DNA from: a virus
IMG/VR virus record: IMGVR_UViG_3300031576_000038
Location: 754 to 64,753 of that record
Length of the DNA stretch: 64,000 bases
Reading direction: 5' to 3' (one strand)
Under the pieces are notes generated by a model. That model made no database searches, was not told the origin of the DNA, and worked only from the letters and a program-made list of their open reading frames with translations. Positions 53,868 through 55,381 of the stretch are shown here, in pieces. A program made the translations under genes and the position numbers. Position 1 is the stretch's first letter. Every line of letters begins with the position of its first letter.

Positions 53868-54148
53868 TGGACATCCTCCTAAAAAACAGTCGAACGAATG
53901 GTGTCAAAGACGCCCGGGTTGCATGTCCGGGACTTTGCCGGCAAGCCGGCTGGCGCGATAATCTTCAACTTTCGGCTCGACAGACAGGGTTCAGAAAACT
54001 TAGCAGGCAAGGATTCGACTGAGGGGGTTTCATCAAAAAGATAACCCTCAGTCAGCGGCCCGCGTTTTTGGAGCGAGTGGTAGTGGTGAGACTACAATAA
54101 CCTACTGGCATCGTCCCGACGAGCGGGATAGTGGTCGCCATAGGCAGC

Positions 54149-54261
54149 CACTCGCAAATGAACGGGGTGGGAGTCGAACCCACAAATCGCAGTAACGATA
54201 ACGGTCATCCAGCGGCCCCTTCTGAGACGAAAAACGGCAACCGGCTGCTCATGCCCATGAG
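54149..54261 (-). ncRNA. expanded tRNA-like element (113 nt)
   Basis: Ends GAACGGG/CCCGTTC pair perfectly. D-arm GCTC-ATGGGCAT-GAGC. T-arm GTGGG-TTCGACT-CCCAC. About 60-nt interior carries one repeat copy. Confidence 0.4.
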
Positions 54262-54427
54262 CGACCCGTTCGAGTACGCGCGAGCGATGGTTAGTCATTG
54301 GAGAAAATGGATGGAACAAGAACATCTTGTCCCGCCCGAGAACCAAAGCGCTGCGGCTCGCGTTGTATAGAGTGGGCAAAGGGATAGCCGAAGGCGGAAT
54401 CATTAAAAGTGATAACCTTCAGCAAAC

Positions 54428-54557
54428 GGCCCACAAGCAGACAGGGACGGATTCGCACCGCCAACCCCCAGCGCCGAGAGAACAGTTCGACATCGGCCCA
54501 CGTTGAAGCGGACTACAAAGCGTTGAACCATTACAAGCTGGTGCTCTACTGATTGAG
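54428..54557 (-). ncRNA. expanded tRNA-like element (130 nt)
   Basis: Ends AGACAGG/CCTGTCT. D-arm GCTC-AATCAGTA-GAGC. T-arm GGCGG-TGCGAAT-CCGTC. About 80-nt interior. Confidence 0.4.
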
Positions 54558-54805
54558 CTACCTGTCTAACGTTTGAATCATGAGCAAGTCTTTCGACGCT
54601 AGGTGGTACGTGCGTGTAAGCGGCCGTGTCACGCTTCTTTGGACTCACGCTACGTGTGTTGCATCGTTTGCACGATAATCCACGCCGTTCGGCTCATGCT
54701 TTATTGTGCGAGCAAAGCATTTGTGTTCCGTGCCTGTTTCGAGCAGGCGAAAGGGCTTTCAAGGCCCCAATCATCCACGATTATGAAACACATCCGGCTC
54801 GCAAG

Positions 54806-54950
54806 TGGCCAGGGTTGGACTCGAACCAACGCCTTTCGTTCTTCACACGATAACCGTTTCCAAGCCGGCCCATCTACGCCCTACTATGAGAGCGCATCGG
54901 ACAAAAAATAGGAACCGGGTTTTAACGCTCTACCGCTAAGCTACCTGGCC
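54806..54950 (-). ncRNA. expanded tRNA-like element (145 nt)
   Basis: Ends GGCCAGG/CCTGGCC. D-arm GCTT-AGCGGTA-GAGC. T-arm GTTGG-TTCGAGT-CCAAC. Interior holds CAT within an 8-nt loop and one repeat copy. Confidence 0.4.
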
Positions 54951-55087
54951 ATGTTCTGCGTCGGTCGTTGCAAGCGACCCATGTTTGCTTGATGTCCTCC
55001 AAGTTACAGCTTGAAGATAATCGGCTCTCGTGCGGCTCAGGCCGGGACCGTCCCGACTTGAACAAAGAATGCTGAGGACCGTGTCAG

Positions 55088-55221
55088 TGACCTCGGTGGG
55101 GCTCGAACCCACGACCTCTCTCTTAAAAGGAGATAACGCTTTATCACCGTCCCGACGCTTATGAGGCGTCAGTCAAAAACGACAAGCGGTTTTTAGCGCT
55201 CTACCACTGAGCTACGAGGTC
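55088..55221 (-). ncRNA. expanded tRNA-like element (134 nt) with CAT anticodon-like arm
   Basis: Ends GACCTCG/CGAGGTC. D-arm GCTC-AGTGGTA-GAGC. Extra hairpin AAAAAC...GTTTTT. Anticodon-like arm GACGC-CTCATAA-GCGTC. 41-nt variable region carries the repeat. T-arm GTGGG-TTCGAGC-CCCAC. Confidence 0.45.
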
Positions 55222-55381
55222 ATAAAAAAAATGGGCAAGGGATTGACAAAGGATGGTGACGTTTTGGAGTAACGATAACCTTTGCCATTCGGCCCATGTT
55301 TGTAAGTTCAGGCAAGGTGTGCGAGAAGGTGTTTAGTGACAAACCAGTCGATAACCCTCAAGCGTCGGCCCGAATTTTTTC

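Follow-up and report, generated by a model that had tools for sequence, protein, structure and literature searches.

A stretch of 64,000 nucleotides from the IMG/VR virus record IMGVR_UViG_3300031576_000038 (positions 754 to 64,753 of that record; the whole stretch is referred to as the window) contains a bipartite motif, GGGCCG-N9-GGTTATC, in a tight cluster beside a gene for the protein Ro60. We consider it very probable that the phage Ro60 gene is directly preceded by Y RNA modules and that the motif represents their conserved 5' strand. Fourteen such modules follow each other head to tail on the minus strand from 55373 to 53890. They share one anatomy in two connectivities, eight of them being open hairpins of the classical type and six being capped, their strands co-vary, and they are linked to Ro60. 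An earlier reading made from the sequence alone (the sequence-only reading) had offered a protein recognition site, for example for Ro60, and an RNA structural module as two separate options. Both hold and are the same thing: the first half of the motif is the known Ro60 recognition strand, and an element acting at the RNA level is supported by the co-varying partner strands, the position of the array next to Ro60 and the homologues found on the Ro60 strand in 154 of 155 cases.

Anatomy of the modules and resemblance to Y RNAs

GGGC-C-G(A) pairs with (C)UUGYCC, leaving the second C bulged, and thereby forms a predicted Ro60-type helix. The pairing is present in 12-13 of the 14 modules and degenerate in the one designated tY3; across relatives its pairs co-vary from G-C to A-U and from C-G to U-A. 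The nine spacer nucleotides together with the following GG form the 5' strand of an upper stem, the sequence of which differs from copy to copy while the partner changes with it: the 8-9 bases preceding UUAUC find their complement a few nucleotides 5' to UUGYCC. UUAUC itself is a conserved junction and its AUC often begins a small hairpin. The clearest example is module B, which reads 5'-AUGGGCCGAAUGGCAAAGG-UUAUC...CCUUUGUCAAUCCCUUGCCCAU-3'. The statement of the sequence-only reading that the motif forms no obvious hairpin is thus true for the motif taken alone, but every copy has a distant complementary partner strand. Folding of single sequences recovers the stems with z-scores of -4.1 for module B, -4.3 for module F and -5.8 for module H, while those of the others are weaker. 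Within the window, spacers fit their own units better than those of other units do; with spacers reassigned at random, the total complementarity observed was attained in no more than 3 of 20000 trials.

A scan of the region with Rfam, judged by E-value, gave three matches to RF01656, the family of nematode stem-bulge RNAs (sbRNAs), which are Y RNA homologues. The family consensus (..UCGGUCCGGaGucgaUGGGUUAUC....CCCAucgaCACCAACUUGACCG...) corresponds to GGUCCG-N9-GGUUAUC in the 5' strand and to CUUGACC in the 3' strand, with the same spacing as in the motif. The best module of the window reaches 28.4 bits (E=0.003), which is below the gathering threshold of 38. Going by these scores the resemblance is real, and membership in the nematode family is not claimed. 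Human Y1 and Y4 contain GGUCCGA-(N)-GUUAUC, again with a spacing equal to that of the motif. Both sbRNAs and the Y RNAs of vertebrates conserve UUAUC (PMC4726728), and bacterial YrlA keeps GNCGAAN0-1G on the Ro60-binding 5' strand (PMC4201824), the strand of the conserved bulged helix that Ro60 mainly contacts (PMC4201824; bioRxiv 10.1101/312249). The corresponding recognition strand of animal Y RNAs reads GGUCCGA. The array lies within 4 kb of the Ro60 gene and on the same strand, as demanded of prokaryotic Y RNAs by Chen et al. (2014). A Ro60 stem formed by the RNA termini is predicted in the eight open modules; the other six show a capped helix instead.

Occurrence of the motif and conservation of the open modules

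The exact motif GGGCCG-N(8-11)-GGTTATC occurs five times, always on the minus strand (55371-55350, 55295-55274, 54871-54849 with N10, 54432-54411 and 54061-54040), while no copy is expected from 100 dinucleotide-preserving shuffles. Seven copies had been counted originally; two of these are near matches located within tRNA-like units, one with a single mismatch (54218-54197) and one with two (55153-55132). When the spacer is fixed at N9 and up to two mismatches are allowed, 12 matches are found, all on the minus strand between 53957 and 55371, as compared to a chance expectation of 1.31 per 64-kb window and a maximum of 5 in the shuffles. A relaxed motif expression yields 13 copies within the same 1.4 kb and none elsewhere on the minus strand. 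The fourteenth module (54802-54708) was overlooked by the pattern search because it lacks UUAUC, and was recovered by a covariance model. The cluster, previously placed at 54040-55375, is therefore real and local, but it was undercounted and stretches lower, to 53890. A similar density elsewhere in the window was not seen, copies being confined to 53957-55371 on the minus strand, and both the spacing of 9 nt (10 nt in one copy) and the dissimilarity of the spacers were borne out.

For comparison, 80 viral loci were retrieved through the Ro60 protein. Alignment of open modules with MAFFT put the 3' strands out of register, and the first covariance model was therefore seeded on module B alone with a hand-drawn structure and then iterated. 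A rigid two-helix search recovered clean modules only, as bulges defeat the others. The model seeded on module B collected 53 homologues, in which 94.1% of the cells are paired versus 68.4% after column shuffling (0 of 500 shuffles reach the observed value). Changes on both sides occur in 18 of 21 pairs, and pairing falls to 32-52% when the partners are slid by 1-3 columns. G6, G9 and the UUA of UUAU are (near-)invariant in 39 distinct sequences, in part through ascertainment. A second model, R2, for which these homologues served as input, gave 155 matches at E up to 0.1 in the 80 loci, almost all of them less than about 2.5 kb from the Ro60 gene; E-values of such home-made models are rough. 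With speed filters off, R2 finds eight modules in the window including the one at 54802-54708. A hairpin module of Limnoglobus roseus PX52 (L093:2991-3059) reaches 40.5 bits with RF01656 and thus exceeds the curated threshold of 38. The Rfam families of bacterial Y RNAs gave no match at any of the loci tested.

These data bear on the idea that the motif acts at the DNA level, either as a promoter for a neighboring sigma-like factor or as a site for a DNA-binding or endonuclease protein. The fixed spacing of the half-sites would fit such a site, as would the sigma-70-family gene located 1 kb upstream (56976-56416). We nevertheless regard it as scarcely credible. A site in DNA would have no need of the complementary partner that co-varies with every copy, the orientation is strand-specific and follows Ro60 in 154 of 155 cases across unrelated genomes, and the same motif is the consensus of eukaryotic sbRNAs. 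No sigma-70-type promoter-like site is present on the minus strand between 53800 and 55500, which speaks against the sigma-dependent promoter that had been suggested, and an endonuclease site found no support. Recognition by a vWA protein had also been considered. The relatives of the vWA protein encoded beside the array amount to only two distant matches (33-37% identity) that have neither Ro60 nor motifs beside them; a synteny of vWA gene and array is therefore not general.

Capped modules and tRNA-embedded units

In six modules, UUGYCC and the upper-stem partner lie upstream of GGGCCG. Because of this position of the partner strand, a loop or a small hairpin caps the Ro60-type helix, and the module opens at what is normally the loop end. 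Two of the six capped modules reside in simple-stem scaffolds (about 55080-54963, and 54155-54073). The other four are situated inside cloverleaves, between the D arm and an anticodon-like arm (55221-55088, 54950-54806, 54567-54438 and 54271-54159). The sequence-only reading had recognized three copies in tRNA-like units; these three hold, and the fourth cloverleaf at 54271-54159 has to be added. Its assignment of the copies to the variable-arm position gets the topology roughly right, but the insertion point of the module is behind the D arm, with the motif forming its 3' half, and in the tRNA-embedded modules the AUC of UUAUC opens the next, anticodon-like hairpin.

The tRNA units have a D arm, a T arm and a 7-bp acceptor stem that is open-ended, its free ends including a discriminator base directly after the stem. 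Three of them exceed the Rfam RF00005 threshold of 29 bits (51.6, 48.4 and 47.5 bits) with inserts of 58-87 nt, while the fourth, tY4, was not reported. CCA is not encoded; the discriminator is followed by CUU, CUG or UUU. Units in which the acceptor and T-arm pairs are more than 98 nt apart turn up in many viral loci. In a plain MAFFT alignment of 18 units, which was fitted to no structure, 100% of the cells are paired in the acceptor helix, with compensatory changes in 7 of 7 pairs, and 100% in the T stem. The capped Ro60 helix is paired in 93.5% of the cells and shows exchanges of G-C to A-U and of C-G to U-A in 4 of 6 pairs, and 70% pairing is found for the upper stem, the register of which is blurred by indels. 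A covariance model built on this alignment, R3, assigns 69-94 bits to the four units of the window as compared to 25-50 bits for ordinary tRNAs, and in the R3-fitted alignment (99 hits, 91 distinct) the capped helix is 92.1% paired.

Units that reach 60 bits or more are present in 15 of 80 viral and in 32 of 80 bacterial Ro60 loci sampled from genomes and metagenome-assembled genomes, the bacterial carriers belonging to the Chloroflexota, Planctomycetota, Armatimonadota and others. On the complete chromosome of Limnoglobus roseus PX52, mixed arrays of tRNA-embedded units and hairpins precede an intact Ro60 gene, and one Limnoglobus unit has a minimal UUC cap (GCCC-UUC-GGGC). R3 matches of 40-55 bits in Verrucomicrobia were discarded. 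They are staggered relative to R2 hits of 125 nt and hence represent cross-hits on tandem classical units, which is why only R3 matches of at least 60 bits were counted as tRNA-embedded. The Verrucomicrobia Ro60 loci (L135, L137, L139, L142, L147 and L148) feature tandem units of about 125 nt whose open Y stem surrounds a tRNA-like domain; Y module and tRNA are combined here in a third manner. In one of them (L148:1504-1601) the enclosed part is scored as a full tRNA by Rfam (1518-1586). The capped, tRNA-embedded layout departs from that of known Y RNAs, and any function assigned to it is putative.

Anticodon-like arms

Judged by their sequences, many units are complete tRNAs with a Y module between positions 26 and 27, the AUC of UUAUC representing positions 27-29. 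The modelled topology would be a five-way junction as in class II tRNA. A hairpin starting within UUAUC is found in 42% of 101 modules versus 20 +/- 4% in shuffles. Measured from the A of UUAUC, the spacing to the T stem shows a sharp peak at 21-22 nt (37 of 66 tRNA-embedded units), equivalent to an anticodon arm plus a variable loop of 4-5 nt. When anchored at the T stem, 27 of the 66 units show a 7-nt loop on a stem in which 4 or all 5 of the possible pairs are formed, usually only 4. U is present at loop position 2 in 25 of these 27, and U33 together with a purine at position 37 in 23, as compared to 0-4 in slid registers. Within the window, an anticodon arm is present in tY2 and tY3 and absent from tY1 and tY4. 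Six hairpins of anticodon-loop form were seen in the 1.5-kb array, two of them at 54732-54768 and one each at 54963-54979, 55154-55170, 54398-54414 and 55118-55134. Their loops read CUCAUAA, CUUUUAA (twice), CUUGCAA, CUUGAAA and CUCGAAA, and one of them caps the Ro60 helix of tY3. Anticodon-like hairpins of this kind (stem of at least 4 bp, loop YUNNNRA) occur at 0.2 per kb elsewhere on the strand, annotated tRNAs excluded, so that the six in 1.5 kb represent an about 20-fold enrichment. The enrichment is modest (22 anticodon-like loops versus about 5 expected) over the 372 motif instances in the fetched loci. The notion that the UUAUC hairpin always mimics an anticodon arm is therefore only partly true (42% versus 20%; 22 of 372), although the tendency is strong in the window and in the tRNA-embedded units.

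The arms raise the question whether the Y modules in the four tRNA-like units are intervening sequences, the excision of which would yield decoding tRNAs (Phe-GAA, and Lys-UUU or an ochre suppressor) along with free capped Y hairpins. When the insert is removed in silico, ARAGORN reads tY2 as canonical tRNA-Phe(GAA) and units from the loci L093 and L038 as tRNA-Met(CAU) and tRNA-Arg(UCU), respectively. tY3 without its insert is also called as a tRNA, with the anticodon UUA in one register and UUU in the other, while tY4 gives no ARAGORN tRNA call after excision. In addition to the canonically placed arms in 27 of 66 units, of which 23 have both U33 and R37, the proposal gains from the fact that the 15 ordinary tRNAs of the window include none for Phe or Lys, and from the Chloroflexi. 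There, tRNA arrays are found near Ro60, the larger ones with 17-22 tRNAs, and the unit follows right after tRNA-Asn and mostly precedes tRNA-Ala (L102:1487-1613, L107:144-271, L104:1287-1414, L110:1097-1223, L099:1103-1227, L125:1330-1460, L130:1179-1312). This slot is fixed, and in L102, L104, L125 and L130 the anticodon is missing from the ordinary set. Against excision, orthologues with the same acceptor, D and T arms carry CAU, CUU, UUU, GAU or GCA, and with the exception of L099 all of them have A73 as discriminator, which is unfit for a fixed aminoacylation identity. These Chloroflexi orthologues also share a co-varying small stem. Furthermore, position 27-43 is usually mismatched, tY1 and tY4 give rise to no anticodon arm, and the anticodons of L038 duplicate those of ordinary tRNAs. 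The inserts of 58-87 nt have no group I intron match (E up to 10) and are far too short for such an intron (about 200 nt or more), and neither a splicing endonuclease nor RtcB was identified among the open reading frames scanned. Altogether, we judge excision improbable. Stable tRNA-mimicking chimeras are favored over spliced precursors because the triplets vary between orthologues and because tY1 and tY4 lack the arm. The same anticodon differences among orthologues weaken the possibility that the units take part in ordinary decoding and make up for tRNAs missing from the set.

Composition of the array

All modules are given here in 5' to 3' order on the minus strand. Module A is an open hairpin (55308-55373) with the motif at 55371-55350 and its partner at 55329-55308; it scores 39.9 bits with R2 and 21.4 bits with RF01656, and its minimum-energy fold pairs UCGGGC with GCCUGA. 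Module B, likewise open (55231-55297), combines the motif at 55295-55274 with the partner CCUUUGUCAAUCCCUUGCCCAU at 55252-55231 and reaches 28.4 bits (E=0.003) with RF01656, 62.9 bits with R2 and a fold z-score of -4.07. A run of eight T (55223-55230) directly follows and resembles the oligo-U tail that Y RNAs have in eukaryotes; it may belong to a terminator or be a mere spacer ahead of tY3. The latter (55088-55221) is a cloverleaf with a capped Y module after the D arm. Its degenerate motif GGGACG..CGUUAUC is located at 55153-55132 and the upstream partner at 55188-55180, with a cap hairpin at 55170-55154 (loop CUCAUAA) and an anticodon-like arm at 55134-55118 (loop CUUUUAA). The unit is scored as a tRNA with a 75-nt insert by Rfam (48.4 bits) and reaches 86.8 bits with R3.

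The capped module X1 (54963-55080) has a non-tRNA scaffold. The upper and lower 3' strands (55080-55059) are followed by a cap (55058-55039), the motif GAGCCG-N10-GAUUAUC (55038-55016), a hairpin (55016-54997) and an anticodon-loop-like hairpin (54979-54963, loop CUUGCAA). It was recognized by the relaxed motif, by UUGUUC upstream of GAGCCG and by a fold with a capped helix, and its limits are approximate. In tY2, a cloverleaf with a capped Y module (54806-54950), the partner CCGGUUCC..UUGUCC (54918-54899) precedes a cap hairpin (54898-54872), the motif (54871-54849) and an anticodon arm (54851-54835, loop GUGAAGA); the scores are 47.5 bits for Rfam tRNA with an 87-nt insert and 94.2 bits for R3. 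The raw ARAGORN call of a tRNA-Phe (gaa) at 54805-54880 is a partial misreading of this 145-nt unit, in which GGGCCGG of the motif was taken as a false acceptor strand. X5 (54708-54802) is the open module that lacks UUAUC. It has GCGAGCCGGAUGUGUUUC as 5' strand (54802-54785) and a 3' strand at 54728-54708, and is supported by R2 (22.8 bits, E=7.9e-5, speed filters off) and an agreeing fold. According to a hairpin scan, its loop harbors two anticodon-loop-like hairpins (54768-54752 and 54748-54732). The open module X2 (54580-54697) has the motif GAGCCG-N9-GAUUAUC at 54695-54674 and its partner at 54606-54580 (R2 20.2 bits, E=3.4e-4); the fold contains an outer stem AUGAGC/GCUCAU at an overall z-score of just -0.03.

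The tRNA tY1 (54438-54567) carries the capped Y module inside the anticodon stem CCAGC/GCUGG, with the partner at 54530-54510 and the motif GGGCCG-N9-UGUUCUC at 54499-54478. It scores 51.6 bits with Rfam tRNA (58-nt insert) and 71.0 bits with R3, and the fold agrees. Module F (54372-54434) is an open hairpin with the motif at 54432-54411 and the partner at 54394-54372 (R2 41.5 bits, z-score -4.27), in which the hairpin scan found an anticodon-loop-like hairpin at 54414-54398 (loop CUUUUAA). X3 (54280-54361) is open and weak (R2 13.6 bits, E=0.013), with the motif GAGCCG-N9-GGUUCUC at 54359-54338, the partner at 54292-54280 and an outer stem GCGAGC/GCUCGC in the fold. The tRNA-like tY4 (54159-54271) features the acceptor stem GAACGGG/CCCGUUC, a D arm, a T arm and a compact capped Y module that comprises CCGGUUGCC (54244-54236), the motif (54218-54197) and a hairpin with a 6-nt loop (54199-54186). 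It reaches 68.9 bits with R3, and its fold includes the capped helix (z-score -2.57). X6 (54073-54155) is capped within an outer stem GCGAGUGG/CCACUCGC, has its partner at 54144-54125 and the relaxed motif GGGACG-N9-GGUUAUU at 54117-54096, and the structure appears in both the minimum-energy and the centroid fold. Module H (54003-54063), an open hairpin with the motif at 54061-54040 and the partner at 54025-54003, scores 48.2 bits with R2 and 15.6 bits with RF01656 at a fold z-score of -5.77. The open module X4 (53890-53980) has the motif GAGCCG-N9-GAUUAUC at 53978-53957 and the partner at 53910-53890, is supported by R2 (29.1 bits) and by its fold, and ends 23 nt before the Ro60 start codon. 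The gaps between units are mostly 3-12 nt and never exceed 22 nt. The boundaries of X1 and X6 as well as all RNA ends are predictions.

The Ro60 gene and the integrity of the array

The Ro60 gene (52265-53867, minus strand) encodes a TROVE ring and a Ro60-type vWA domain (Pfam E-values of 1.3e-9 and 4.8e-35 for TROVE and 1.6e-67 for vWA_Ro60) in two overlapping open reading frames, the second of which covers 53500-52265. A tblastn search with Limnoglobus Ro60 located a +1 shift at LRGWG|RGLR, caused by an extra G in a run of five G (53428-53424), where homologues read ..LRGWGRGLR.. without interruption. The shift could be an assembly error, the mark of a pseudogene or a case of slippage.

Several observations weigh against the identification of the array as Y RNA modules serving Ro60. 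With Ro60 frameshifted as assembled, the protein partner may be defective, or the shift may be an error in assembling the homopolymer. tY3 has GGGACG and no clean bulged C, X3 scores just 13.6 bits, and the fold z-scores of X2 (-0.03) and A (-1.04) are near zero. Neither a promoter nor a convincing terminator was found for the array in the sigma-70 and terminator scan of the minus strand (53800-55500). All characterized Y RNAs have their Ro60 site in the stem formed by the RNA ends (bioRxiv 10.1101/312249). Finally, alignments compiled from model hits lean to the structure of the model, the test with MAFFT alone being more conservative.

The frameshift and the departure of tY3, X3, X5 and X6 from the consensus could also indicate that the array is decaying debris, that is, Y RNA and tRNA pseudogenes beside a dead Ro60 gene. 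This appears very unlikely to us, since the spacers all differ and yet have kept their own complements, the acceptor and T stems are perfect, and in many genomes mixed arrays adjoin Ro60 genes that are intact, the complete chromosome of a planctomycete being among them. A single surplus G in a homopolymer is, moreover, the kind of error that assembly typically produces.

Relation to known Y RNAs and tRNAs

The motif itself is explained by known biology, because Y RNAs beside a phage Ro60 gene are to be expected: Y RNA genes ahead of phage Ro60 have been described for mycobacteriophages (PMC4201824) and for Thermus phage phiLo (PMC12135203). The modules share with animal Y RNAs and RF01656 the 5' strand and its spacing, the 3' strand (CUUGACC versus CUUGCCC), the bulged C and the upper stem. 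As in animal Y RNAs and sbRNAs, UUAUC opens the loop (PMC4726728), and the Limnoglobus relative even passes the curated score of RF01656. Unlike animal Y RNAs, the modules are encoded by a phage in a dense array beside Ro60 and are presumably transcribed by a bacterial-type polymerase instead of Pol III, and six of them have the reversed connectivity. The role of UUAUC in eukaryotes, DNA replication in vitro, cannot apply to the phage array.

Similarities to YrlA of bacteria and mycobacteriophages (PMC4201824) comprise the GNCGAA strand, a gene position on the Ro60 strand and no more than a few kb away, a tRNA-like domain that has D and T arms, and the order of Ro60 strand, variable or extra hairpin and T arm. 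In YrlA, however, the Ro60 stem is made up of the RNA termini and a loop closes the acceptor, which makes it a circularly permuted tRNA (bioRxiv 10.1101/312249), whereas here the acceptor is open and the Ro60 helix is closed. The YrlA layout of a closed acceptor and a terminal Ro60 stem was not seen in the tRNA-embedded units, many of which have an anticodon-like arm while YrlA is devoid of an anticodon loop. Yrn1 from Deinococcus radiodurans agrees with our modules in keeping both strands of the Ro60 helix, as animal Y RNAs do, in tRNA-like features and in the presence of several Ro60-associated RNAs near rsr (PMC4201824), but its two ends are located at the Ro60 stem, and neither a capped helix nor a free-ended acceptor stem has been described. 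The Y-like RNAs Yrl1 and Yrl2 of phiLo were found via a CGAA motif, are encoded immediately upstream of the phage Ro60 gene and bind Ro60 and the host PNPase in vitro (PMC12135203). These are two simple stem-bulge-stem RNAs as opposed to 14 modules, and tRNA-embedded or capped forms have not been reported for them.

In topology, the embedded units with their five-way junction of acceptor, D arm, long extra arm, hairpin and T arm resemble class II tRNAs, and Rfam sees a tRNA with a large insert. The extra arm of class II tRNAs differs from the one found here, which is about 60-87 nt long, sits 5' and not 3' of the anticodon-like arm and is a predicted Ro60-binding module; no known type of bacterial tRNA intron fits the units. 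In the searchable literature we found no description of the capped connectivity, of its insertion into complete tRNAs or of a wide distribution of such units, nor of the size and mixed make-up of the array or of the full animal-type signature including UUAUC in prokaryotes or phages.

Possible function

It is conceivable that the array is transcribed as one precursor from which RNase P and RNase Z would excise the tRNA-like units, thereby freeing the intervening hairpins. Such processing is suggested by the short gaps, the lack of a promoter inside the array and the proper acceptor stems. By analogy to Ro60-Y RNA particles (PMC4201824, PMC12135203), each module would bind one Ro60 through its GGGC-C-G strand, and the bound RNA may control entry into the Ro60 ring. 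Either the variable loops or the body of the tRNA could tether Ro60 to other factors such as PNPase. Tethering of Ro60 to PNPase is what Y RNAs accomplish in Deinococcus and in Thermus phage phiLo. The loops of the fourteen predicted docking modules differ, several resembling anticodon loops, which points to a single phage Ro60 being guided to a multitude of partners and bears on tRNA-targeting defense and counter-defense.

More speculatively, and with considerable doubt on our side, the embedded units may form a widespread undescribed class of tRNA bodies, located in tRNA arrays of phages and bacteria and equipped with a Ro60 docking arm, that serve as Ro60-tethered tRNA or anticodon-loop decoys or sensors, or as handles linking Ro60 to tRNA surveillance and repair. 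The variation of the anticodon-like triplet between orthologues would be in line with such a role, for example against anticodon nucleases in phage defense, a notion that is equally tentative. A further consequence of viewing the units in this way would be that UUAUC, with the signature GGNCCG-N9-GGUUAUC common to phages and humans, is an old component of the Ro60-Y particle and not a eukaryotic replication motif.

The Ro60-binding helix is apparently usable in reverse, capped by a loop and grafted into a complete tRNA, and this arrangement is common and includes a cultured planctomycete. The tRNA-embedded units are therefore candidates for the Y RNAs of those Ro60-containing bacteria in which Chen et al. 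found no strong YrlA candidate (PMC4201824). They can also be viewed as the covalent counterpart to YrlA from Mycobacterium smegmatis, which is cleaved by RNase P and receives a CCA tail. Bacterial Y RNAs have been reviewed as 'not homologous' with the vertebrate ones (PMC4726728). As the strands, the spacing and UUAUC are common to the phage/prokaryotic and animal forms, bacterial or phage Ro60 offers a direct means of testing whether Y RNAs share one origin and what UUAUC does.

Genomic surroundings

Upstream of the array, the minus strand encodes a vWA protein (56434-55382) and the sigma-70-family protein mentioned above. A second vWA protein and a Band-7 protein follow downstream of Ro60, also on the minus strand. 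The two vWA proteins are paralogs (PHROG 7371 and 26613) and flank Ro60 together with the array. Along with an RlaP-family nucleotidyltransferase and the Band-7/SPFH protein they lend the region a flavor of RNA repair (35189-36133, 49409-50767, 51480-52106 and 55382-56434); RtcB ligase was not identified among the open reading frames scanned, nor was a splicing endonuclease. Searching GenBank phages with the array by blastn gave no match, and the exact 22-mer of module B retrieved nothing from IMG/VR or the JGI metagenomes.

The gene set of the window fits a large phage. Its replication genes comprise a split DnaE, DnaB, a RecA-like protein, ThyX and a Toprim-domain protein, possibly a primase. 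A tmRNA gene (43887-44245, Rfam 67.1 bits) and 15 ordinary tRNAs (38951-49048 and 57541-57613) also reside on the minus strand, within this phage-like region of replication and nucleotide metabolism. Besides Phe and Lys, the ordinary tRNAs do not include any for Ala, Asp, Cys, Ser, Trp or Val. The alpha subunit of DNA polymerase III is encoded in two open reading frames that lie about 1.8 kb apart (180-1841 and 3649-5652), with the PHP and NTPase domains on one and the finger, HhH and OB domains on the other.

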